Source: Escherichia coli | GTDB taxonomy: Bacteria; Pseudomonadota; Gammaproteobacteria; Enterobacterales; Enterobacteriaceae | DNA length: 9,233 nt | Assembly (NCBI RefSeq): GCF_003334255.1 | Contig: NZ_QOWU01000090.1 | Reading direction: 5' to 3' (one strand) | In this document: positions 1-9,233 of the stretch, piece after piece | How positions within the stretch are numbered: position 1 is the stretch's first letter | How the letters are laid out: every line of letters begins with the position of its first letter | Position numbers and translations under genes: made by a program | Notes under the pieces: generated by a model | Told to the model about the DNA's origin: nothing | Database searches by the model: none | The model's input: the letters and a program-made list of their open reading frames with translations, nothing else

Positions 1-76
1 AGTTATCGTGAGAGTAATTCATCGGCACGTTAAATCATATCAGGCGTAATACCACAACCCTTAAGTTAGCGCTTAT

Positions 77-96
77 GGGGGGAAGTCCCCCTTTTT
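77..96 (+). terminator. Rho-independent terminator closing a + strand unit lying left of the window
   Basis: G-run 77..82, loop AAGT, C-run 87..91 (5-bp all-GC stem), followed directly by TTTTT 92..96. Confidence 0.5.
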
Positions 97-106
97 AACG
101 TCATTT

Positions 107-154
107 TATGCAGGGAATGTGTAGTTCTACACAGATTCTATGCAGTATCGGTAT
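107..154. repeat. Compound repeat: TATGCAG (107..113), perfect 16-bp palindrome TGTGTAG-TT-CTACACA (118..133), TATGCAG (139..145), TATCGGTAT (146..154)
   Basis: Read directly from the sequence. Further same-orientation TATGCAG(G) copies at 219..225 and 469..475. A given 7-mer is expected less than once per strand in 9.2 kb. Confidence 0.7.
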
Positions 155-437
155 AGTCCCTTTTTATTCTAACTTATTGAAATATATAAAGAATCTGCAA
201 AGCCTCTTTTCAGGGAGCTATGCAGGGTGTTAGTCGTCCCTCTCCAGACACTACATATAGTGCTATATACAGGGCTATATAACGATATATAGATGTTTGG
301 TCACATGGTGTAACTATCAAGAAACTTAATAGTTTCCTATGTGAAAGTTATTTCTGAGGGTGGGTAAGTGCTCAGGAGATTTCATGAGGATAATTCTTAT
401 CCGAATCATCACGTAGAACACGCTTAAGCACAGATAC

Positions 438-461
438 AAAAAAGCCCCCATGAAGGAGGCT
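438..461 (-). terminator. Rho-independent terminator of the recombinase gene
   Basis: On the - strand: AGCCUCC-UUCAU-GGGGGCU (7 bp including one G.U) followed by UUUUUU (A-run 438..443 on +). The hairpin begins 25 nt after the stop codon at 487..489. Confidence 0.65.
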
Positions 462-486
462 ATGAATCTATGCAGGTGATGAGAAA

Positions 487-1053
487 TTATTCAGCTTTAA
501 TACGCTGTACAGTTGACTTGGCAACGTTGAATTGAGCGGCTACTTTAGCGATTGAACTACCAGCAGCAAGAGCAGCTTTAATACCTTCTCTGTCAACCGC
601 TTTACCGTTACCCCTTCCAACTACACGACCAGCAGCTTTAGCAGCTTCATAACCTTCTCTTTGACGCTCAAGCATCATTTTACGTTCAGCTTCAGCCACT
701 GCTGAAAAGATTGTGAGAATCATCTTAGACGTGGGGTTATCGTCACCAGTTATCAGACCTTCTTTGTGAAAGTGAACCTTGATACCTTTCTGTGAAAGTT
801 TATCCACCAGCGTTAATACATCCACGGTAGAGCGCCCTAAACGTGACAGGTCGTGTACATGGATAGTGTCACCTTCACGAACATAATCGAGCATAGCCTT
901 TAGTTGTGGACGGTCTGTATTCTTCCCAGATGCTTTATCAGTAAATACCTTATCCAGTACGACCCCTTCAAGTTGACGGTCTGTAATCTGCTGGATTGAT
1001 GAAACTCGAACATAACCAATGTTAGCCATAATATACTCATTTGCCTTACTCAT
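487..1053 (-). CDS. Small serine recombinase (resolvase/invertase family)
   Basis: 188-aa ORF. MANIGYVRVSSIQQ matches the catalytic-serine N-terminus of the family (compare Hin MATIGYIRVSTIDQ). Also DRPQL, LSRLGRS, an E-helix AEAERKMMLERQREG, and a C-terminal Gly/Arg arm plus HTH (IAKVAAQFNVAKSTVQRI). The family-typical start is the internal ATG at 1029 (M-A-N-I-G-Y); 1053 is the longest-ORF start. Confidence 0.9.
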   Translation of the reverse strand: MSKANEYIMANIGYVRVSSIQQITDRQLEGVVLDKVFTDKASGKNTDRPQLKAMLDYVREGDTIHVHDLSRLGRSTVDVLTLVDKLSQKGIKVHFHKEGLITGDDNPTSKMILTIFSAVAEAERKMMLERQREGYEAAKAAGRVVGRGNGKAVDREGIKAALAAGSSIAKVAAQFNVAKSTVQRIKAE

Positions 1054-1064
1054 TTGATGGATTG

Positions 1065-1094
1065 AGTATAACGTACCGATAAAGTGTTTTACAA
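1065..1094 (-). promoter_or_regulatory. Candidate sigma70 promoter of the recombinase gene
   Basis: - strand TTGTAA (1094..1089), 18 nt, TATACT (1070..1065). The predicted start near 1058 leaves only about 5 nt before ATG 1053, which favours ATG 1029 as the real start. Confidence 0.35.
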
Positions 1095-1156
1095 GGCTAA
1101 TCGGTATGGTTTTTACAGGGGGTTAGCTATACCTTTTTAGTATGCTATATCGGTAT
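1074..1156. repeat. ATCGGTAT motif cluster upstream of the recombinase gene (candidate res-like binding sites)
   Basis: TACCGATA 1074..1081 (inverted copy), ATCGGTAT 1100..1107, TATCGGTAT 1148..1156. The first two form the dyad TACCGAT-N19-ATCGGTA. A fourth copy lies at 146..154 on the other side of the gene. An 8-mer is expected about 0.3 times in this window. Confidence 0.55.
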
Positions 1157-1339
1157 GCCTAAGAGATGGAGATGCCTTTACAGCAACTCACATAGAAAGT
1201 CAATAGATATTTGGCTTTTTTGCAAAGGGGGTCACATAGCTGGTGTGACGGGTACTTAGCAGGTATAGACCTGTGATAGATATTTTCGAAGATTCGGGGA
1301 AGATGAGATTCAAAGAGGGCTAGTCATTTTTTATAAAAA

Positions 1340-1477
1340 TTTTCAGACTCTGAAAAGTTACTGTACAGATTTTATACAGATATCTTTAAAGTATCTGTAA
1401 AGACTTTTAAGATAAGAGATAGATATCCCAGAAAGGATATCCGTTTAGAAAACCTGTTAAGTATCTCTTAAAAGAGA
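1340..1477. promoter_or_regulatory. Cluster of four unrelated dyad symmetries in the recombinase/methyltransferase divergent intergenic region
   Basis: TTTTCAG-ACT-CTGAAAA 1340..1356; TACAGATA-N9-TATCTGTA 1375..1399; GATATCC-N6-GGATATC 1422..1441; TCTCTT-AA-AAGAGA 1464..1477. All arms are perfect. Confidence 0.5.
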
Positions 1478-1521
1478 GTAAACCTTGTCAATAGTGATTG
1501 CAATAAAAATTTTTATTTCTT

Positions 1522-2184
1522 ATGTCAATTGAGCATATTTTAATCGGGAAACATCATGGGGGTTCTGATTACTGGAGAACTCCATTTCTTATATTCCGCA
1601 ATTTGCACCGTGAGTTTAGTTTCAGTCTGGATGGTGCTGCAACTGAGCATGACACGCTGTTACCACGATTCACCAATGATATTCACAATCAGTCATGGGA
1701 TGGTGAACGGGTGTTCTGTAACCCACCATACAGCGACACTAAAACATTCCTCCTAAAAGCCGCTGAAGCGGATTTAGCGGTATTCCTGATACCGTACCGA
1801 CCCCACACCACATACTGGCTTAAGCACCTCTTCACAAACCCGCTTTGCCATGAAATCCGTATTCTTCATCGTGCAGTTAAATACCTTCCACCAGCAGGGC
1901 ATAACGGGCTTGCTATTAGGTCACCGTTTGCAAGTGCAATTGTCATCTTTAAAACTGAGCCACGCAGACATGAAATTACGCAGATGATTTGCTGTGCTGA
2001 TACATTGCTACCGTTAACCATCATTAACAGAGGAGGCTTAAGAGGAAGACCCACCATTTACCCACCTGAGACGCTCGACAGCTTCATAAAGCTATACAGG
2101 CAAGGAAAACCCATTAAGTGCATTGCAGATGCTCTCAGAATGCCTCTGAGCACGTCATACAGGATTGCGCAAAGGTTGAGCTAA
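1522..2184 (+). CDS. Phage Dam-type DNA N6-adenine methyltransferase with a C-terminal resolvase-type HTH domain
   Basis: 220-aa ORF. DYWRTP...FSLDGAA...W-x3-VFCNPPYSD follows the phage Dam family layout (PF05869-like), with catalytic NPPY at nt 1720..1731. From GRP (nt 2044) the last ~46 aa read as a Hin/resolvase-type DNA-binding domain (GRPTIY...IKCIADALRMPLSTSYRI). There is no SD before ATG 1522, so the start is uncertain. Confidence 0.8.
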   Translation: MSIEHILIGKHHGGSDYWRTPFLIFRNLHREFSFSLDGAATEHDTLLPRFTNDIHNQSWDGERVFCNPPYSDTKTFLLKAAEADLAVFLIPYRPHTTYWLKHLFTNPLCHEIRILHRAVKYLPPAGHNGLAIRSPFASAIVIFKTEPRRHEITQMICCADTLLPLTIINRGGLRGRPTIYPPETLDSFIKLYRQGKPIKCIADALRMPLSTSYRIAQRLS

Positions 2185-2288
2185 AATTCTCATAAATATG
2201 GCCATTTACAAGACAGGTGATTTAGATATTAAGAAGTATCCCTGTGAACAATAAATGACCAATCAGTAATTATTCTGTGAAATAATTG

Positions 2289-2317
2289 TTGCAATCTATA
2301 ATCACACATGATATAGT
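2289..2317 (+). promoter_or_regulatory. Sigma70 promoter of the replication operon
   Basis: TTGCAA (2289..2294), 17 nt, TATAGT (2312..2317). It gives a leader of about 225 nt before the rep-like ATG at 2551. Confidence 0.55.
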
Positions 2318-2378
2318 TTCATAGTGGGCTGATAAAAAAGTTCATGTCTTGAAGTGGTAACACTTGGGGAGGTGTCAG

Positions 2379-2414
2379 ATGATTGACGTCAACAAGACCT
2401 CTCATTCAGGGTAA
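2379..2414 (+). CDS. Possible 11-codon leader peptide (MIDVNKTSHSG) in the rep leader
   Basis: Strong SD GGGGAGG (2366..2372), 6-nt spacer, ATG 2379, stop TAA 2412..2414. No other support. Confidence 0.25.
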   Translation: MIDVNKTSHSG

Positions 2415-2499
2415 TTACCTCAGCGTTTTAATCATCGTACTGTTTCAGGCATGGACTTCTTTATCAGTCCATCAATCCCCCAGATATTTTAATCACACA

Positions 2500-2530
2500 G
2501 GCTAATCGGTTTTATCCGGTTGGCCTTTTC
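2500..2530 (+). terminator. Attenuator-like intrinsic terminator just upstream of the rep RBS
   Basis: GGCTAATCGG (2500..2509), loop TTTTAT, CCGGTTGGCC (2516..2525): 10 bp including two G.U pairs, then TTTT (2526..2529). It ends 7 nt before the SD GAGG 2537..2540. Confidence 0.45.
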
Positions 2531-2550
2531 ACGTATGAGGTAATTTATGA

Positions 2551-3489
2551 ATGTCTAAATATAACCCAAATCAGTTTTATAAATTTGATGTGCGAATCTC
2601 TCAGCTTTCAGAAGAAATTAACGCAGCAGCAAGATTAATTTATATGGTCATGGTTCATAGCTGTGATTTCTATGAAGAGAAGTACAAAGCATATTCACCA
2701 AGTATTGACCATCTAGCTTATATGGCTGGTGTTTCAAAGAGAACGGCAATCAGAGCTATTGAGACACTTGAGAAACACGGTTTAATTCAGGTGCAAAAGA
2801 ATCAGGGTCGTCAAAGCACTTATCGTGTATTCACACTGGATGATAAGCCGGAATTACTTGTAAGACCTACATCACAGGAAGTTGCAGCCTCAGTAAGACA
2901 AAATGACACCACTACCAGTGACAAAATGTCATCAGTACCAGTGACAAAATGTCATGGGGGTAGTGACAAAATGTCACCCGTGTTAGATAAGTTATTAGAT
3001 AAAACATTAGATAATAATATTATAGATAAGAGTAAAGATACTGAACTTGATGTTGGTATCAATGAAGATGATTTTCTTTCTTTGGATGAATTAAATGATT
3101 TTCTCTCTATGAATGAATCTGACCTTGATAGTGAAGCTACTAAAGAGACCTCTAAAACATCTGACTTAGAGGAAGATAAAATCTCTGATGTGAATGAAGT
3201 TAGTGACCAGCAAGATACACCTTGCCGCCTCGAATCAACTGATGATGAATTACCGGATGTTGACCTTGATGATGAAGAAGACCCTGAAGAGGAATTGAAA
3301 CGTGAACAGCGTAAAGCAGAAATTAAAGAAAGATTCAGAAAGGCAAAGCTAAAGAACAGGATTGATGAACTTGATGACTTTGATGATAGTGACGATGATT
3401 TTACTTTTACACCAAAAAAGAAAACTCACACCGAGCCAAAGAAAGAAAAAGTTAAAGTCAGACGTGTTTATGCTGGAGGAATGTTTTAA
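2551..3489 (+). CDS. Replication-initiator-like protein: N-terminal winged-HTH (HTH_36-like) and a long acidic C-terminal half
   Basis: 312-aa ORF. ARLIYMVMVHSCD...YSPSIDHLAYMAGVSKRTAIRAIETLEKHGLIQV...STYRV is the HTH pattern seen in phage/plasmid initiators. Iterons and an AT-rich tract lie inside the gene (2892..3029). SD GAGG lies 10 nt upstream. The gene is translationally coupled to the next ORF. Confidence 0.7.
   Translation: MSKYNPNQFYKFDVRISQLSEEINAAARLIYMVMVHSCDFYEEKYKAYSPSIDHLAYMAGVSKRTAIRAIETLEKHGLIQVQKNQGRQSTYRVFTLDDKPELLVRPTSQEVAASVRQNDTTTSDKMSSVPVTKCHGGSDKMSPVLDKLLDKTLDNNIIDKSKDTELDVGINEDDFLSLDELNDFLSMNESDLDSEATKETSKTSDLEEDKISDVNEVSDQQDTPCRLESTDDELPDVDLDDEEDPEEELKREQRKAEIKERFRKAKLKNRIDELDDFDDSDDDFTFTPKKKTHTEPKKEKVKVRRVYAGGMF
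2892..2976. repeat. Four phased iterons (candidate origin of replication inside the rep gene)
   Basis: AGTGACAAAATGTCA at 2917..2931, 2940..2954 and 2962..2976. Copies 1 and 2 are identical over 20 bp (TACCAGTGACAAAATGTCAT). A degenerate copy AGTAAGACAAAATGACA lies at 2892..2908. Spacing is 23/23/22 bp. Each copy contains the dyad TGACA-AAA-TGTCA. Confidence 0.75.
2983..3029. repeat. AT-rich tract with 12-bp-phased TTAGATAA repeats (candidate DNA-unwinding element)
   Basis: TTAGATAA at 2983..2990, 2995..3002 and 3007..3014, plus ATAGATAA at 3022..3029. It lies immediately 3' of the iterons and is encoded as LDKLLDKTLDNNIIDK. Confidence 0.55.
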
Positions 3490-3779
3490 TGAAAGAATAT
3501 AACGGTGAAAAACGATACAAAGATTATCTATTAAGGCGCTACAGCATTTCTCGTGAAGGTCATCTTCTGAAAGATACTCATGGGGAGGTTTACCGGATTC
3601 GACCGAAGAAGGAAGGAAAGAATTATTTCTTTTTTGATGGTGTGACAGATTTAAAGATTGACGCTTTGAGGTTTGCAGTGATGTATCATTTTGATGTCTG
3701 GGATTCAGTCCACCAGCTACGATTAAAAGACGGTGACCCCGGTAATCTGAAGGCCACCAATATCATCACAAAACGTTAG
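3489..3779 (+). CDS. Hypothetical 96-aa protein, weak resemblance to HNH_3/NUMOD4-type phage endonuclease scaffolds
   Basis: ATG overlaps the rep stop (TAATG). YSISREGHLLKD...GKNYFFFDG...H-x4-KDGDPGNLKATN loosely follows the Y-x-V-S-x-x-G ... H-x-DGD-x-x-N-x-x-x-NL pattern, but the key Asn/His positions look degenerate. Confidence 0.5.
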   Translation: MKEYNGEKRYKDYLLRRYSISREGHLLKDTHGEVYRIRPKKEGKNYFFFDGVTDLKIDALRFAVMYHFDVWDSVHQLRLKDGDPGNLKATNIITKR

Positions 3780-3961
3780 TTTGTTTTACCATCATCAATC
3801 GTAATTGTGATTTCATATTTGAAAAGCTTAATGCTGAAATTGAATCGTGTACTTTTGGCGATAATCATTTTTAAAAGCTGATACACCAGAAGCACCAGAA
3901 ACACAAAGCAACCTAAGCTTGCGAATCTGTGAGATTCAGCAATTGTTTCAAGAAAGCCCAT
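3776..3961 (-). CDS. Small single-pass membrane protein (61 aa)
   Basis: Good SD AAGGGG 5 nt before the ATG (3961..3959). Hydrophobic segment LGCFVFLVLLVYQLL. It has its own promoter (4012..4040). It converges on, and overlaps by 4 nt, the 3489..3779 gene. Confidence 0.5.
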   Translation of the reverse strand: MGFLETIAESHRFASLGCFVFLVLLVYQLLKMIIAKSTRFNFSIKLFKYEITITIDDGKTN

Positions 3962-4011
3962 TAATTCCCCTTATTTATCAAAGGGAATGACCTGTATCAG
4001 CCCCTATAACC

Positions 4012-4040
4012 ATAATATCATGTAAATGAGATGTTGACAA
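4012..4040 (-). promoter_or_regulatory. Sigma70 promoter for the 61-aa membrane protein
   Basis: - strand TTGTCA (4040..4035), 17 nt, TATTAT (4017..4012). Its -35 overlaps the -35 of the divergent + promoter. Confidence 0.55.
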
Positions 4041-4062
4041 TATGTTAAATAAATGTTAAGAT
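4034..4062 (+). promoter_or_regulatory. Near-consensus sigma70 promoter of the 4099..5374 operon
   Basis: TTGACA (4034..4039), 17 nt, TAAGAT (4057..4062). It is overlaid by three tandem 11-bp repeats: ATGTTGACAAT, ATGTTAAATAA, ATGTTAAGATT (4031..4063). Confidence 0.65.
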
Positions 4063-4098
4063 TGTAGTATGAGTAAGAGATTTAAGGAGATTTTTACA

Positions 4099-4389
4099 AT
4101 GACTCACACAGTTACGCGCCTTTTGCCAGAGGCATTTGAACGACTGGCAGCAATCAAAGCCAAATATCCCGATATGAAGCACACAGCGCTTGTTGCAGAG
4201 GTTTTAAAAGAGCCGGTAGACTTGACCCCTTTCGATAACGTTAAGGGCGTTGCAGAGGGTTCTAAGGCCATCAGAATCACAACGGGCCAACTGGAACTAC
4301 TCAAAGCACAGTCCGCAGTAGCAGGTTGCTCAATGATTCAGGTCTTAAGCGCAAAGGTTCATCAATTAGCGGATAAGCTGGGGGTTTAA
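4099..4389 (+). CDS. Small DNA-binding-like protein with two tandem ribbon-helix-helix-like segments
   Basis: SD AAGGAG (4083..4088), 10 nt, ATG 4099. The ORF track starts at ATG 4069, which coincides with the predicted transcription start. TVTRLLPEAFERLAAIKAKYPDMKHTALVAEVL and AIRITTGQLELLKAQSAVAGCSMIQVLSAKV each fit a strand-helix-helix pattern. This was judged by eye only. Confidence 0.6.
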   Translation: MTHTVTRLLPEAFERLAAIKAKYPDMKHTALVAEVLKEPVDLTPFDNVKGVAEGSKAIRITTGQLELLKAQSAVAGCSMIQVLSAKVHQLADKLGV

Positions 4390-4814
4390 TGCTATGTACA
4401 TTTGATTATCATGCGTTTTATCGACATAGAGGTCATCTTGTCCGTGAGAATAACGGAACATGGAAAGATTTAACTCGTAATGCTGAACCCTTCACACACC
4501 AGCAATTAAAATCCCGCTTCTCCAGATGGAAGAATGCACCAGCAGATACTGGTGATTTTGAGATTATCCATACCTTCGATTATGCCTCAGAAGATGACCT
4601 TCACGATGCAATTAAGCTGATTGAAGACTTCAATACCTCAGAAAATGTGGATGGTGACAAATATAAATCCCGTGGTAACCGCTATAACCGTGATGATATC
4701 ACTCAGGCCATAAATGCTGGTCAATCTCAGCGATACATTACAGAAAAATATGGTATTTCACGGAGACAGTATTTCTACGTTAAATCATTGATTAATAAAG
4801 ACAATTCAAAATAA
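4389..4814 (+). CDS. Hypothetical 141-aa protein with a C-terminal resolvase-type HTH
   Basis: ATG overlaps the upstream stop (TAATG). The C-terminus DDITQAINAGQSQRYITEKYGISRRQYFYV resembles HTH_7. The N-terminal ~100 aa are unrecognised. Confidence 0.6.
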   Translation: MLCTFDYHAFYRHRGHLVRENNGTWKDLTRNAEPFTHQQLKSRFSRWKNAPADTGDFEIIHTFDYASEDDLHDAIKLIEDFNTSENVDGDKYKSRGNRYNRDDITQAINAGQSQRYITEKYGISRRQYFYVKSLINKDNSK

Positions 4815-4820
4815 CCATCT

Positions 4821-4920
4821 CAGTAACGGTAGAATGCACTTTACAGGCAGAGTTGCACCTTAATTTGATAAATTACCTTACCAGCCAGTGCAACTCCCTC
4901 TGTAACCCGCATGGTTACTG
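4821..4920. other. 100-nt imperfect long hairpin / cruciform-capable element
   Basis: Nested arms: CAGTAAC 4821..4827 / GTTACTG 4914..4920; ATGC 4834..4837 / GCAT 4909..4912; TTACAG 4841..4846 / CTGTAA 4900..4905; GAGTTGCAC 4850..4858 / GTGCAACTC 4888..4896. That is 26 bp in total, with a 29-nt AT-rich apical loop. Confidence 0.6.
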
Positions 4921-4973
4921 GCCTCAGAATGGCTATTTTAAGAGGTCTGAGATGTGTTTTAGAGGAATTTAAA

Positions 4974-5297
4974 ATGAGCAATTACGAATTACAGATTTTC
5001 GTTGATAACGACACCGCTATGATGATTCAGGCTTTCAGTGATTCCGGTGTATCAATTGATTTTGACAGGCTGTTAAAGCTGATGGCTGATAATGCAGAAA
5101 ACATCTCTGACTTTATTCAGTCGGTGGAGTTTAACGAGCCTCGAATGATGCTACCAATTACCGACTCAAACATGAAAAGATTGGTTATCGAGCAAACGAA
5201 CAAACACAGTATTTCCCCAGAGCAATTTTTGAAAGGTGCTGTGACAATCCTGCACAGCGATAATATTCTGGTGACGGATTCTATGAGGGTTCACTAA
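4974..5297 (+). CDS. Hypothetical 107-aa protein
   Basis: SD GAGGA (4963..4967), 6 nt, ATG 4974. The longer ORF start at 4911 lies inside the hairpin element and has no RBS. The C-terminal MLPITDSNMKRLVIEQTNKHSISPEQFLKGAV is weakly RHH-like. Confidence 0.6.
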   Translation: MSNYELQIFVDNDTAMMIQAFSDSGVSIDFDRLLKLMADNAENISDFIQSVEFNEPRMMLPITDSNMKRLVIEQTNKHSISPEQFLKGAVTILHSDNILVTDSMRVH

Positions 5298-5374
5298 TGG
5301 GATTGATAATTGCTTGGACAGCTTTAGGTTTATTTGTTGGTTGCTGGGTGGGCAACACAGTAAATAAGAATTGA
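5297..5374 (+). CDS. Possible 25-aa hydrophobic peptide (MGLIIAWTALGLFVGCWVGNTVNKN)
   Basis: ATG overlaps the stop of the preceding gene (TAATG, the same coupling as two other junctions in this window). One clean transmembrane-length hydrophobic stretch with a basic/polar tail. It is too short for statistical support. Confidence 0.3.
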   Translation: MGLIIAWTALGLFVGCWVGNTVNKN

Positions 5375-5406
5375 TGTTACCAATCTGTTAAAAAGCTGTT
5401 GACAAA
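5374..5406. promoter_or_regulatory. Three tandem 11-bp TGTT repeats ending on the -35 box
   Basis: ATGTTACCAAT 5374..5384, CTGTTAAAAAG 5385..5395, CTGTTGACAAA 5396..5406. The same unit and phase occur at 4031..4063. Confidence 0.55.
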
Positions 5407-5427
5407 TAACCTTAAGCATGGCATAAT
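5399..5427 (+). promoter_or_regulatory. Near-consensus sigma70 promoter with no adjacent conventional gene
   Basis: TTGACA (5399..5404), 17 nt, CATAAT (5422..5427). A second -10-like TATATA follows at 5430..5435. Confidence 0.65.
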
Positions 5428-5433
5428 TGTATA

Positions 5434-5652
5434 TATGAGGATAGTCTTCTATCCGAAGTCTATAGGAAGAGCAATTTTTCCTAAAATCATATTTTCAATA
5501 ATCCGATGGATGGATATTCTGAGTTGGAAAGGTGCAATGCTTTTCGTCATGGCCTTTCAGTTTAGTCTGAGAGGTCATCTCAAAAAGTGCTTAATCATTC
5601 ATTATTGAACCCTTACAGCTTTGCCCTAACTCATGATTAGGGCGTTTTCTTT
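5434..5652 (+). ncRNA. Candidate ~0.2-kb structured short transcript (promoter to first terminator); alternative reading is a leaderless 57-codon ORF at 5435..5608
   Basis: It is bounded by the promoter above and terminator T1. Hairpins: GGATAG-TCTT-CTATCC 5439..5454; TAGGAA-N9-TTCCTA 5463..5483; GAAAGG/CCTTTC 5527..5558; TGAGA-GGTCA-TCTCA 5568..5582. No SD-preceded ORF is present. An ATG at 5435 sits at the predicted +1 and opens MRIVFYPKSIGRAIFPK... (rich in ATA/AGA codons). Confidence 0.35.
5623..5652 (+). terminator. Intrinsic terminator T1
   Basis: GCCCTAA (5623..5629), 7-nt loop, TTAGGGC (5637..5643), then GTTTTCTTT. Confidence 0.65.
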
Positions 5653-5721
5653 AAGAGTTTTGAAACAGAGCTTTTAAAGAAAGTTTTCCTGAAACTTCGT
5701 TAACGTTATAAGCAAACCTTC

Positions 5722-5757
5722 AAAGCCCTTCACAGATTATGTTTAGGGCTTTTCTTA
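5722..5757 (+). terminator. Intrinsic terminator T2 (3' half nearly duplicates T1)
   Basis: AAAGCCCT (5722..5729), 15-nt loop, AGGGCTTT (5745..5752), within the T-rich run TTTTCTT (5750..5756). Confidence 0.55.
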
Positions 5758-5842
5758 ATAGAGCATCTTTAATAAATCGTTAAGTCATCTTCTAAGTGTA
5801 TTGGCGTTGAAGGTGCTCTATTAAGAAATAACCACACTTAGA
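5754..5842 (+). promoter_or_regulatory. Leader with two interleaved inverted repeats reaching the RBS of the 5854 gene
   Basis: CTTAATAGAGCA 5754..5765 / TGCTCTATTAAG 5814..5825 (12 bp perfect). TCTAAGTGT 5791..5799 / ACACTTAGA 5834..5842 (9 bp perfect); its 3' arm overlaps the start of the SD GAGGA 5841..5845. Confidence 0.45.
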
Positions 5843-5853
5843 GGAAAAAAATA

Positions 5854-6564
5854 ATGACAAACGATATTTACATTAATGGCAAAGTGATTGATAGCTTCGG
5901 TGACTGGTCACCACAGACTGAACATCCAGCTATCGCTATTCAGCGCAAAGAGCACGATGCGAGAATTGCACTTGAGCAATCGCTAAAGATGACACCAAAG
6001 GAAATTACCTTTGTGGCTCCTGAACCTCAAGAGATGCCCGATATTGGCAAAACTGAAGCATTATTTAATCTTGAGCGCGAATATTACCCACAGTTAAAAG
6101 AACAGCGCCTTAGATTAGATGACGCTTACAGCAAAGTTACCTTGATGCAATCAGCTATTGAGCCGTCAGAATTTGAGATTCAGGATGAATTGTCACAGAA
6201 ACCATTTGTCTATTACCAATACGAAGACAATGATGGTTTTGGTACTTTTCCAGAAAACATCACAGGCGTGATTAGTAGTCTTCCTGATGGATATCGAATT
6301 GTGAAGATGGTTAAAGCTTCAAGAGGTGCTGGTCAGTTTATTTACATGACCAATAAGAGCGATGAAGAACTCCGTGAAATTGCCAGACAGAACATCTTGG
6401 CATCACGTAACAAGCAACTTGAAAATGTTAAGTTGTATCTCTCAAGAGAGCTTCAGGCTATGAAAGAGCTTGTTAGTGAATATGAGTCGCAGAAGAAGAT
6501 TGCTATGCAAGCCGATATTGAGCAGCTTACGAAGATTTCTCAGAAGTATAGCAAAGCGATTTAA
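5854..6564 (+). CDS. Hypothetical 236-aa protein with a coiled-coil-like C-terminus
   Basis: SD GAGGA followed by an 8-nt spacer before the ATG. Long ORF with even, gene-like composition. The C-terminal ~70 aa are K/E/Q/L-rich (NKQLENVKLYLSRELQAMKELVSEYESQKKIAMQADIEQL). No family was recognised. Confidence 0.7.
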   Translation: MTNDIYINGKVIDSFGDWSPQTEHPAIAIQRKEHDARIALEQSLKMTPKEITFVAPEPQEMPDIGKTEALFNLEREYYPQLKEQRLRLDDAYSKVTLMQSAIEPSEFEIQDELSQKPFVYYQYEDNDGFGTFPENITGVISSLPDGYRIVKMVKASRGAGQFIYMTNKSDEELREIARQNILASRNKQLENVKLYLSRELQAMKELVSEYESQKKIAMQADIEQLTKISQKYSKAI

Positions 6565-6580
6565 TTTAAGTGAGGTGAGA

Positions 6581-6796
6581 ATGATTGATTTGCAACAGCG
6601 TTATGAAACTATTAAGTCGGCTTGTGAAAACTTAAAGTTACAAACCAAGCCAGCCTTAAGAATTAAAACCAAACATCAAATTATCACCTCACACAAACCA
6701 AAAACACGCAAGATTCCAAAGTGGTGTATTGACCGTATTCCTTCTGATGCTCAAATCATAGGTGAAACGGAATTACATTATCTTGTCCGACATTAA
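6581..6796 (+). CDS. Hypothetical 71-aa basic protein
   Basis: SD GAGGTGAG directly upstream of ATG 6581. The ORF track extends to 6470, but that extension overlaps the previous gene and lacks an RBS. Confidence 0.5.
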   Translation: MIDLQQRYETIKSACENLKLQTKPALRIKTKHQIITSHKPKTRKIPKWCIDRIPSDAQIIGETELHYLVRH

Positions 6797-6823
6797 AAAA
6801 GAATTGGTTGGGTAAAAATCAAC

Positions 6824-6866
6824 GGGAGAGATTATCGAGTGATATCGGTAGTTTCTCCCTTTTTTG
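6824..6866 (+). terminator. Intrinsic terminator after the 5854..6796 gene pair
   Basis: GGGAGA (6824..6829) pairs with TCTCCC (6854..6859). A short inner CGA/TCG pairing is possible. A TTTTTT run follows at 6860..6865. Confidence 0.5.
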
Positions 6867-6872
6867 TATGTG

Positions 6873-6915
6873 TGCTACGTGAAATCTTCTGAACAGATAT
6901 ACCCACCAAAAATTA
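6873..6915 (+). repeat. 43-bp direct repeat, copy A (promoter-like module upstream of the tape-measure gene)
   Basis: TGCTACGTGAAATCTTCTGAACAGATATACCCACCAAAAATTA. It is 36/43 identical to copy B at 9112..9154, and 25/27 over the first 27 nt. It contains TGAACA-17-TTATTT. GCTACGT 6874..6880 is inverted at ACGTAGC 6922..6928. Confidence 0.7.
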
Positions 6916-6956
6916 TTTTTTACGTAGCTCACGCTTAAAGAGGTGAAAAAATATGA

Positions 6957-9023
6957 ATGGCACAATTTAAAGTTGATGATTTTCTGATTGAGCTAGGTTT
7001 TAACTCTCAGAGGGTTTTAAAAGGTCTGGAAAAAGCCGAGAAACAAACGATGCAGGTAGCATCACGAATTGAGAAGCGATTGAATAAAGCTTTTAAAGTT
7101 AACCCTACGCCTTTAAATGATTCTCTCAAGGTCATGGAAAGAAATGTCGATAAAACTGTTTCCAAGATTGAGCAGCGTCTTAAAAACACTAAAGCGTTTA
7201 AGATTAAAACGGAAATTGAGGATACTTTAAAGCCACTTAGACAACCGAGACAGCCACGAATTAGCGGAAGCAGAGCAATTACAGCAGCGCATAGCGTGAA
7301 TATGAGCAAGCTTCGTGACTTTAATCCTATGCTTGAGAAGTATTTTAAAAGCCAGTATTACAGCTTAAGCAGTAAATCCAAGACACTTGGAAACGAAGCT
7401 TTTAATCGTGAGTTAGCAAAATTAAATCAATCTCTTCGTGAAACACTTTCTAAGTTTAACAAGACCACCAGCAAAAATAATCACAGTGAAAATGCTTCGA
7501 ATGGTCTGGATGTATTAGCTACGAGTGCAATCAAAGCAGGTACAGCCATTTATAGTTTTCAGACAGCCTTAGAAGCTTACAGGCGGATTATGGAGGTTGG
7601 TCTGAAAAAAGAAGCATCACAACGAGCGGCACAATTCGTTTTAGGTGATGAAGGTGCTAAACGAGCTACAGAATTTGTTAAGAATCTTGCTGATAGTAGT
7701 GGTGTAGACCAGATTGAAACATTAAGCAGTTTTGCTAAGTTTTCCGCTGGTGCTGGTGATATGAATGCAGACCAGAAAGAATCCTTATTTTCTAATGTGA
7801 TTGGTACATCCAGATTAATGGGGCTAAGCACCGATGAAATTAACGGGATTTTAAAAGCTTTCGAGCAGATGGCATCTAAAGGAAAGATTCAGGCTGAAGA
7901 GCTACGCGGTCAATTAGGTGACAGAATGGCAGGTGCTTTTCAGTTATTTGCCAGAAGTCTTGGGATGACTACGGAAGAATTAGACAAGGCTATGAAAGAC
8001 GGTAAGGTTCTTTCTAAAGATGTTCTCCCTAAAGTATCCGCTGAAATGGGAAAGATGATTGATAAAGCGGGAGGATGGGAAAAGATTATTAACTCTACTC
8101 AGACGCAGTTAGGCCGCTTAAGTAATTCATGGAATAATAATTTGGCCTTAATGTTCGATGGTTCACAGGAAGGTTTAACAGACTTTACAAGGTCACTGAC
8201 TAATTTACTTAATTCACTGGGTGGTCAATCTAAAAATCTTGGTGAACATTTTGGCGACTTGATGAAAAGCATGTCAAACGGTATTGATGATTTAACCACG
8301 ATTAGCTACCGAGTGCAGGGATTCTTTGACAGAGTGACCCTTGCTTACAGAGAATTAAATGACACTCAAAAAGCTGTAGCTGATGGTATCGCAAATGGCC
8401 TGTTAAGTGCATTAAAGGGACTTGCTGGTATTGTCGCTGTAAGGTCTGGTATTGGTGCTGTAGGTGGTATCTGGAACTTAATTAGGGCTATTTCCACGCT
8501 TGGGAATGTAGCAAATACAGCAGCAGGAAGAATTAATTCACGTTCTGGTGGTGTTGAAAGTGGAAAAAGTAGGCTATCTGTAGCTGATGCAATTACCAGA
8601 GTAATGATTGTCGGTATGACAACTGATGTGATTAATGCCATTGTCAAACCGTTCTATGAACGTCAGATGAGTAAGTCAGATAATCCGATTGATAAAGTTG
8701 TAAGGTCAAAGGTGGAACCCACAGACCAGGCATTAACTGGTGACATGAACTCTTTAGCCGCTGTTTTATGGGCTATGGTTCATGGCAAATCAAAAGATGT
8801 TCCACAGTTTTCACCTGAAGCATTAAATAATCTAAAAGGTCGAGTGGAAACATTCACACAAGATTTAAAGGTTATCAAGCCGTCAGTAAATATTCAGCCT
8901 CAGACAATCAATATCACAACTCAGACGGTACTTGATGGAAAGGTTATTGATGAAAGAACCACATCGCATATTAATCGTATGCAGGAAGATACCTTGATTA
9001 GCTCAGCTTACCCAGAGGAATAA
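6957..9023 (+). CDS. Phage tail length tape-measure protein
   Basis: 688-aa ORF. The core ...LMGLSTDEINGILKAFEQMASKGKIQAEELRGQLGDRMAGAFQLFARSLGMTTEELDKAMKDGKVLSKDVLPKV... is the conserved tape-measure block (TIGR02675-like). The N-terminal third is K/E-rich and helical. Gly/Ala/Ile-rich hydrophobic segments (GIANGLLSALKGLAGIVAVRSGIGAVGGIW) are typical of the family. SD GAGGTG lies at 6940..6945. Confidence 0.88.
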   Translation: MAQFKVDDFLIELGFNSQRVLKGLEKAEKQTMQVASRIEKRLNKAFKVNPTPLNDSLKVMERNVDKTVSKIEQRLKNTKAFKIKTEIEDTLKPLRQPRQPRISGSRAITAAHSVNMSKLRDFNPMLEKYFKSQYYSLSSKSKTLGNEAFNRELAKLNQSLRETLSKFNKTTSKNNHSENASNGLDVLATSAIKAGTAIYSFQTALEAYRRIMEVGLKKEASQRAAQFVLGDEGAKRATEFVKNLADSSGVDQIETLSSFAKFSAGAGDMNADQKESLFSNVIGTSRLMGLSTDEINGILKAFEQMASKGKIQAEELRGQLGDRMAGAFQLFARSLGMTTEELDKAMKDGKVLSKDVLPKVSAEMGKMIDKAGGWEKIINSTQTQLGRLSNSWNNNLALMFDGSQEGLTDFTRSLTNLLNSLGGQSKNLGEHFGDLMKSMSNGIDDLTTISYRVQGFFDRVTLAYRELNDTQKAVADGIANGLLSALKGLAGIVAVRSGIGAVGGIWNLIRAISTLGNVANTAAGRINSRSGGVESGKSRLSVADAITRVMIVGMTTDVINAIVKPFYERQMSKSDNPIDKVVRSKVEPTDQALTGDMNSLAAVLWAMVHGKSKDVPQFSPEALNNLKGRVETFTQDLKVIKPSVNIQPQTINITTQTVLDGKVIDERTTSHINRMQEDTLISSAYPEE

Positions 9024-9111
9024 ACAATGTTAGAGCTACTAATATTTATTGCCACACATGGCAATCTATTAATCTTTATCTAGTATGACGATTCAACTAT
9101 GAATAGTCGAA

Positions 9112-9154
9112 TGCTACGTGATTTCTTCTGAACAGATACCAACATCAAAAATTA
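9112..9154 (+). repeat. 43-bp direct repeat, copy B
   Basis: TGCTACGTGATTTCTTCTGAACAGATACCAACATCAAAAATTA. It is followed after 2 bp by the IS end. Confidence 0.7.
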
Positions 9155-9156
9155 GA

Positions 9157-9233
9157 TGAACCGCCCCGGGTTTCCTGGAGAGTGTTTTATCTGTGAACTC
9201 AGGCTGCCAGATCATTGTTTCCGATGGAAGCAT
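9157..9233 (-). mobile_element. Right end (IRR plus end of orfB) of an IS629/IS1203-like IS3-family insertion sequence, continuing beyond the window
   Basis: From 9157 the sequence reads TGAACCGCCCCGGGTTTCCTGGAGAGTGTTTTATCTGTGAACTCAGGCTGCCAGATCATTGTTTCCGATGGAAGCAT. From memory this is the reverse complement of the IS629-type right end (TG...CA termini, IR TGAACCGCCCCGGG). G+C jumps abruptly relative to the flanking DNA. Confidence 0.85.
9199..9233 (-). CDS. IS3-family transposase OrfB, C-terminal fragment (truncated by the window edge)
   Basis: The reverse-strand frame reads ...ASIGNNDLAA then stop (tca 9199..9201 on +), matching my recollection of the IS629 OrfB C-terminus (...YYASIGNDDLAA). 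Confidence 0.7.
   Translation of the reverse strand, partial: ASIGNNDLAA

Follow-up and report, generated by a model that had tools for sequence, protein, structure and literature searches.

A putative control hub with back-to-back promoters and an orphan small membrane protein gene in a satellite-like island of Escherichia coli

The stretch of DNA described here (the window) comprises 9,233 nt of an Escherichia coli contig (NZ_QOWU01000090.1). Within it, positions 3776-4100 may form the control hub of a satellite-like integrative island of about 11 kb. The hub would consist of two sigma-70 promoters placed back to back, a set of repeats lying over both, and a leftward gene for a small membrane protein whose ribosome-binding site is folded away in its own leader. 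Taken as a whole (promoters, hairpin, operator and accessory membrane effector), this reading is given a probability of about 0.5. Its parts are graded separately below.

The proposed mechanism is as follows. The two promoters share the sequence TTGACAA and could be occupied by one polymerase at a time. The leftward promoter would yield the mRNA of a 61-aa inner-membrane protein, with the Shine-Dalgarno (SD) sequence held in a hairpin of about -10 kcal/mol, so that little protein would be made despite strong transcription. Four phased ATGTWRA repeats over both promoters are most likely the operator of a tandem ribbon-helix-helix (RHH) protein encoded by the first rightward gene. This protein would either tune the two promoters against each other or silence both. 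Transcription of the rep module, being unterminated, could collide or pair with the leftward mRNA. The small protein is probably not a core regulator. It would act in the resident state as an accessory, dose-limited membrane effector that blocks or aborts an infecting phage, or that is harmful if over-made. Promoter activity and exclusivity, the pairing of the RHH protein with the repeats and the function of the small protein are what we infer from the following features.

3776-3961, minus strand: gene of a 61-aa bitopic membrane protein, ATG start (ORF listing and comparative data)
3962-4005, minus strand: predicted 5' untranslated region (UTR) of 44 nt, the start site being placed from the position of the -10
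3964-3988, minus strand: predicted SD-burying hairpin, AUUCCCUUU paired with AAGGGGAAU (inverted repeat and folding)
4012-4040, minus strand: predicted leftward sigma-70 promoter, -35 TTGTCA (4040-4035), 17-bp spacer, TG (4020-4019), -10 TATTAT (4017-4012)
4034-4062, plus strand: predicted rightward sigma-70 promoter, -35 TTGACA (4034-4039), 17-bp spacer, TG (4054-4055), -10 TAAGAT (4057-4062)
4020-4059, plus strand: four direct ATGTWRA repeats (4020, 4031, 4042 and 4053) in exact 11-bp phase, candidate operator array
4099-4389, plus strand: first gene of the rightward operon, 96 aa, SD AAGGAG (4084-4089), start as annotated in relatives
3489-3779, plus strand: convergent 96-aa gene, last gene of the rep module on the left side
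3883-3904, minus strand: in-frame 9-nt tandem repeat CACCAGAAG/A (letters of the plus strand), period 9, 2.4 copies, in the part coding for the transmembrane (TM) segment

The leftward gene and its product

Comparison of alleles indicates that 3776-3961 is almost certainly a real, selected protein-coding gene. The small open reading frame (ORF) was intact in six to seven allele types, drawn from E. coli, Citrobacter and E. albertii. Under our own handles these are the window type, L020 (58 aa), L003 and L005 (60 aa), L013/P0013 (61 aa), the E. albertii type and L022/P0015 (63 aa). Loss of the ORF, or stop codons within it, in related elements had been named in the first-pass annotation of this DNA as something that would count against its reading. 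The frame was open in all 24 loci examined, despite amino-acid divergence of about 50%, and indels were in frame. Between the window allele and L003, L005, L007 and L013, the ratio of non-synonymous to synonymous substitutions (dN/dS, Nei-Gojobori) was 0.10-0.23, with dS saturated at about 1 or more. Invariant nucleotides at codon positions 1, 2 and 3 numbered 17, 32 and 9 over 57 codons (six alleles). Identity of the protein fell to about 72% among database homologues and was lower in the L020, L013 and P0015 types. The Prokaryotic Genome Annotation Pipeline (PGAP) called the ORF in one of the 13 RefSeq loci examined.

The protein has one TM segment, as the first-pass annotation had described, located at about residues 16-34, and is under purifying selection. 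The Kyte-Doolittle maximum over 19 residues was 2.38 in the window allele and 2.38-2.62 in three alleles. A short N-terminal tail with a conserved ESHRF motif precedes the hydrophobic segment. The C-terminal tail (about 27 residues) is basic, and hydrophobic residues alternate in it with polar ones. Under the positive-inside rule, the protein would sit in the inner membrane with its N-terminus outside and its C-terminus in the cytoplasm. A signal peptide cleaved after IIA-K was considered and rejected from alignments and hydropathy: other alleles do not keep the site, and the basic flank on the C-terminal side favours a cytoplasmic tail. Protein variants of 58-67 aa differ solely by 3-aa Leu-Val-Leu units in the TM segment, and these whole-unit length differences arise from the 9-nt tandem repeat.

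The SD AAGGGG is the complement of 3967-3972 and lies 5 nt from the ATG. A purine-rich SD was found 5-6 nt from the ATG in all five main allele types; instead of it, the E. albertii copies show a weaker, GGA-rich stretch about 8 nt upstream of the start.

The family is new to databases. A profile search of 1.8 billion representative proteins returned four clusters at 50% identity, all in this island type, so function has to be approached without help from distant relatives. Scans of Pfam, PHROGs, NCBIfam and PADLOC gave no usable match (cut-off for Pfam, NCBIfam and PADLOC, E <= 0.1). The lone PHROG match was phrog_18243 (function unassigned, E = 0.011), and the search against phage proteins gave no match.

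The genetic setting bears on what the protein may do. The small ORF has its own conserved predicted promoter, directed away from the rightward operon. It is retained intact in decayed islands, among them islands in which rep is frameshifted or stopped, insertion sequence (IS) elements flank the locus, or the promoters are deleted. Two sister islands without annotated rep (L025, locus 4713-4925, and L026, locus 4077-4250, both minus strand) keep a homologous leftward promoter (TTAACA-18-TATAAT, 11/12). In the slot of the small ORF they carry, after a leader of about 200 nt, an unrelated single-TM ORF of about 58 aa (MVNLPPELGSPDVWAGGG...), for which the hhalign probability against the small protein was 0.15%. 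A slot of variable cargo beside a switch and directed away from the rightward operon, together with an ORF that stays intact in decayed islands, would fit an accessory membrane effector of the resident state. Taken alone, this proposal (exclusion, abortive infection or dose-limited toxicity) is made tentatively, at less than even odds. LidI of the Vibrio PLE satellite sets a precedent for a small TM effector of a satellite that annotation had overlooked (PMC7182436).

Promoters, operator candidate and leader

The promoter scan gave the same two sites as the first-pass annotation, correctly oriented, with 17-bp spacers and conserved across alleles. Each scored 10/12 with an extended -10, and TTGACAA supplies the -35 of both. 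Three sites in the 9.2-kb window score at least 10/12 with TG, and the pair makes up two of these. Given TTGACAA, a -10 on the opposite strand (at least 5/6, 16-18 bp) would occur by chance at about 1.5%, or at 0.13% with TG. The leftward -10 is TATTAT or TAATAT according to the allele, and the TG and key -10 positions are kept in all alleles; the rightward variants TAAAGT and TATGAT keep T1, A2 and T6. The most conserved stretch of the locus is the core 3990-4048, which takes in the shared -35, the leftward promoter and the bases transcribed first from it. It is invariant at 48 of 59 positions (81%), against 9 of 57 third codon positions shared by the same alleles. Elsewhere in the intergenic alignment, 8 of 28 positions (hairpin region) and 26 of 50 (rightward -10 and UTR) are invariant. 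The predicted start sites are about 64 bp apart, inside the -80 to +20 overlap criterion of PMC3167631. The pair is probably functional.

The ATGTWRA array spans both -35 hexamers and both spacers, and holds four of the eight matches to this motif found on both strands of the whole window. The 11-bp phase is conserved in every promoter-retaining allele. L022 has five units where the window has four, and the fifth fits the separation of its -35 hexamers. Use of the array as Rep iterons or as an origin was thought less likely, since iteron-like repeats already lie inside rep (2897-3014; 23 bp x 3.5 copies and 12 bp x 2.7 copies, in tandem). These in-gene repeats hint at an origin lying inside rep, an arrangement known from lambdoid phages.

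The candidate reader of the array is the 96-aa product of 4099-4389; a longer ORF from 4069 is probably not the true start. An AlphaFold2 (AF2) model built from a 16-sequence alignment shows a beta-alpha-alpha unit twice (E3-7 H10-22 H28-36 E57-61 H62-75 H79-94), with a predicted local distance difference test score (pLDDT) of 64 and a predicted template modelling score of 0.58. The single-sequence model was uninformative (pLDDT 48). Foldseek against the PDB ranked F-plasmid relaxosome chains at the top, followed by DndE, single-chain Arc, AvtR and ParG, with probabilities up to 0.97. The relaxosome chains, unnamed in the output, are presumably the tandem-RHH protein TraY, and the fold of DndE is presumably RHH-like. 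Seventeen residues are invariant. Seven of them (H3, T4, T6, R7, R59, I60 and T61) lie in the two predicted strands and hold even in the 31%-identical L022 homologue. On this model, a tandem RHH protein probably reads the phased repeats.

The first 15 or so nucleotides of the leftward transcript (3990-4005) are near-invariant across alleles. Downstream of them, the fold-back that the first-pass annotation had proposed to bury the SD was recovered. Its 9-nt arms (3964-3972 and 3980-3988) are 89% complementary around a 7-nt loop, the local hairpin of the window allele is predicted at -9.8 kcal/mol, and the unpaired probability of the SD bases is about 0. A local hairpin was found in six allele types (-6.3 to -10.3 kcal/mol), with stems of 4-10 bp and loops of 4-9 nt. 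It always takes in the SD or the AUG; in L022, it is mainly the AUG that is paired rather than the SD. At SD positions -6 and -7, the window allele differs from L020 by two double substitutions (G-C to A-U). When the upstream UTR was shuffled, the SD was buried as well in 0/300 cases for the window, 2/300 for L020 and 2/300 for L007. From this comparison of alleles we infer that translation of the small ORF is throttled.

A hok-type fold-back between the 5' UTR (3993-4001) and the coding sequence (3877-3885) was also considered and rejected as a general feature, as neither its position nor its strength is conserved in other alleles. The two segments are perfectly complementary over 9 nt, as an inverted repeat, and the pairing can be extended to 13 bp (-16.8 kcal/mol). 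It would link codons 26-28 of the small ORF with the beginning of the 5' UTR and occurs in the window-type allele only.

No intrinsic terminator was found on either strand between 3300 and 4500, which agrees with the earlier remark that no terminator separates the small gene from the converging transcript. The small ORF and 3489-3779 share 4 nt at their stop codons. This tail-to-tail layout is a conserved one: in 20 of 21 sequences, the distance between the convergent 3' ends is -4 to +19 nt, the decayed L013 copy being unscorable. The earliest weak terminator-like site on the minus strand past the small ORF is at 3172-3149, inside rep. Overlap of the convergent transcripts is therefore structurally likely. 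Signs of a dedicated antisense RNA were also sought. The consensus scan, which can miss weak promoters, gave neither a dedicated promoter nor a terminator on the plus strand within 3776-3961 or beside it. With a permissive threshold, Rfam returned chance-level matches only, none of them in 3700-4100. No patch of synonymous-site conservation, as would mark a hidden antisense RNA gene, was found inside the small ORF.

Weighing the hub against other explanations

Several observations weigh against the hub as drawn above. The sharing of the -35 by both strands, as claimed in the first-pass annotation, stands for the window and does not extend to L022 and the L025 sister module, where the two hexamers are separate and do not overlap. 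The shared -35 is thus, as far as these alleles go, a property of the window allele group and not of the whole family. In the E. albertii copies (L006/L007, about 5915-6000), about 50 bp are deleted, and with them both promoters and the repeat array; the small ORF and the gene of the RHH candidate are kept intact there, and a different gene of 260 aa replaces rep and orf96. The conservation of the core could come in part from recombination between mosaic alleles and not from selection. A divergent partner overlaps about 14% of E. coli promoters, and such overlap does not always lead to interference (PMC3167631). The folding energy of the whole UTR is no better than that of shuffles (window z = -0.78). 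Because these whole-UTR z-scores are unremarkable, the case for the hairpin has to be carried by the comparative data, and in L003, L005 and L013 10-30% of shuffled UTRs bury the SD equally, a marginal excess. For the RHH candidate, all Foldseek E-values are at least 0.036, from a model of moderate confidence, and sequence-level searches (Pfam and PDB) gave no match to an RHH family. As for the effector, superinfection exclusion, one of the roles suggested in the first-pass annotation, may apply; only architecture and position link the protein to exclusion or toxicity.

The same annotation had likened the small protein to type I toxins and holins, and neither class was upheld. In a type I toxin-antitoxin-like arrangement, a membrane-depolarising toxin would be silenced by the SD hairpin and by antisense RNA from rep read-through, and lost control would kill the cell or abort infection. 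At 61 aa with one hydrophobic segment, the product was scored as agreeing with the usual size and hydrophobicity of such toxins (under about 60 aa, membrane-inserting). The SD hairpin recurring in six allele types provides, by comparison, the expected ribosome-blocking mRNA structure. The convergent genes lack an intervening terminator in every allele, and the ORF is kept in decayed islands. The label fails because neither an antitoxin RNA nor homology was found. Known toxin families (Hok/Gef, Ldr, TisB, Ibs, ShoB, Fst and others) gave no Pfam, NCBIfam or PADLOC match at E <= 0.1, Rfam gave no antitoxin RNA, and the plus-strand signals and synonymous-site patch sought above were not found within or beside the ORF. 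The leftward promoter is moreover predicted to be strong and looks constitutive, and purifying selection on the tail of about 27 residues and on ESHRF suggests a specific partner, not generic membrane damage. Such a system is considered unlikely here. It is improbable that the protein times lysis on island induction, in a holin-like or LidI-like way that shifts the schedule of a helper phage. It does have at least one TM domain and a charged C-terminus, as holins do, and the island resembles a satellite of lytic Felix-O1-like phages (tape-measure identity 28-29%, full length). A precedent exists in LidI, a 66-aa satellite TM protein likewise missed by annotation and without homologues (PMC7182436). 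Against this, the small ORF is transcribed away from the side of the structural genes, and the promoter geometry suggests expression while the rightward operon is off. The scanned island proteins and the full relatives yielded no endolysin, spanin or other lysis gene, no holin family match was found in the island, and the small protein itself gave no Pfam or PHROG match to holin families.

Control might also reside in the RNA. The leftward transcript would then run antisense into orf96 and rep (3489-3779 and upstream) and hold replication off, the protein being a secondary passenger. The lack of a minus-strand terminator between the ORF and the weak site inside rep, the top conservation of the promoter and first 15 or so transcribed nucleotides, and a tail-to-tail layout that is kept even with the different left neighbour of E. 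albertii all speak for this. The clear purifying selection on the protein and its conserved SD speak against it, as do the sister islands without annotated rep, which retain the promoter and a small TM ORF. Rho would probably end untranslated RNA soon past the stop codon. As an explanation in its own right, RNA-level control is quite unlikely, and it is compatible with the hub rather than exclusive of it. Far less probable is that a dimeric regulator binds the inverted repeat 3964-3988 as a DNA operator and that translation is not throttled. The repeat adjoins the promoter region, and the overall folding energy is unremarkable. However, the arms vary between alleles in sequence, length (4-10 bp) and spacing (4-9 nt), yet the 3' arm is always the SD, and the repeat is inside the UTR, 17-41 nt past the predicted start site. 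An RNA hairpin is preferred because the spacing varies between alleles, whereas a dimer operator would hold it constant. Finally, the single PGAP call among 13 RefSeq loci and the lack of a family match might suggest that the small ORF is a chance frame in a regulatory spacer. The comparative data (dN/dS, codon-position pattern, 24/24 open frames, in-frame indels) effectively refute this.

A wider version of the hub reading may be put forward as a long shot. The leftward slot would be a swap-in site for small membrane effectors of undescribed E. coli satellites that parasitise Felix-O1-like phages. As an effector whose dose is gated, the 61-aa protein would act against phage or modulate lysis, with its output set jointly by the shared -35, the RHH-bound operator, the hairpin and convergent transcription.

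The island and comparison with known systems

The window (1-9233) is the inner part of an integrative island of about 11 kb, with IS elements cutting both ends (relatives L001, 12001-23344, and L002, 8001-18952). In plasmid and phage DNA collections, its sole matches were 1-79 and 9146-9233, where IS3- and IS4-family annotations predominate. The interior matches chromosomal islands, at least partly, in 569 of 5,426 complete E. coli genomes (about 10%), and the region 3480-4400 was matched in 127 of them. Full-length copies are about 11 kb and are inserted in yecE (DUF72), between yciI and tonB, or near putA. They encode a small serine recombinase, a Dam-type methylase, an HTH_36 phage-O-like Rep, the 96-aa gene, the minus-strand small ORF and the rightward operon, followed in our inventory by a tape-measure protein, a Dit-like baseplate protein and a large serine recombinase. 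The 688-aa tape-measure protein is closest, over its full length, to those of Felix-O1-like lytic myophages (28-29% identity). The island looks like an undescribed phage satellite, because the large serine recombinase, Rep, tape-measure and Dit-like proteins are present and capsid and lysis genes are absent. Literature searches found no description of the island family or of the small protein.

On the rightward side, the top promoter match of the window is at 5399-5427 (TTGACA-17-CATAAT, 11/12 with TG). Plus-strand terminators were found at 5622-5644 and 6824-6859, one of them with a 15-bp stem and immediately upstream of the tape-measure gene. This arrangement suggests several transcription units, possibly with antitermination. 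On the left side, the convergent gene 3489-3779 had DUF7271 (E = 0.015) as lone tool support for any family. It was read by eye as a degenerate HNH/NUMOD-type fold, with the motifs ...ISREG... and ...KDGDPGNL.... Its allele type (291-nt or 297-nt form) and the allele type of the small ORF vary together.

Switches led by a small repressor are commonplace in phages and plasmids. The regulatory layout is accordingly of an ordinary, familiar kind, though well supported, and the cargo is an orphan membrane protein. Should that protein turn out to be an effector that acts against phage or on the membrane, it would bring in an orphan small-protein family of a sort mostly passed over by annotation pipelines. 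It would also offer an entry point into an island family matched in about 10% of complete E. coli genomes. The layout of promoters, operator and hairpin would be a compact and reporter-friendly natural example of layered transcriptional, translational and antisense control.

Overlapping divergent promoter switches are known from lambda (PR/PRM) and from the immI region of P22 (Pant/Pmnt), with its RHH repressors Arc and Mnt. A further example is pLS20 (PMC4207663), and overlapping promoters of this type are analysed in general terms in PMC3167631. As in these phage and plasmid switches, a pair of sigma-70 promoters on opposite strands is accompanied here by repeated sites for a small DNA-binding protein from the first gene of one arm, and as with Arc of P22 an RHH candidate heads the rightward operon. 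In contrast, the leftward gene encodes a membrane protein and not a repressor, the RHH candidate is a single-chain tandem with sites that are direct repeats in 11-bp phase, the -35 is shared in some alleles only, and the promoters are predicted from sequence.

Type I toxin-antitoxin systems (hok/sok, tisB/istR, ldr/rdl) have in common with this locus a small hydrophobic protein, a ribosome-binding site hidden in the mRNA, potential antisense transcription and residence on a mobile element. The locus differs from them in its lack of homology, in that no dedicated antisense RNA gene was found, and in a longer protein with a conserved hydrophilic tail. HK97 gp15, T4 Imm and lactococcal Sie2009 are superinfection-exclusion membrane proteins. 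They too are small inner-membrane proteins of a resident element, often placed beside a switch in a slot whose cargo varies among relatives; the small protein has no PHROG or Pfam match to any of them. LidI, from the PLE of Vibrio cholerae, is also a TM protein of about 60-66 aa from a satellite-like island with a serine recombinase, and was likewise missed by automatic annotation and without detectable homologues beyond its island family (PMC7182436). Its position and orientation in the island are different, and the likeness is one of size and context, with no sequence similarity claimed. For LidI, the function has been established experimentally as the collapse of lysis inhibition (PMC7182436).

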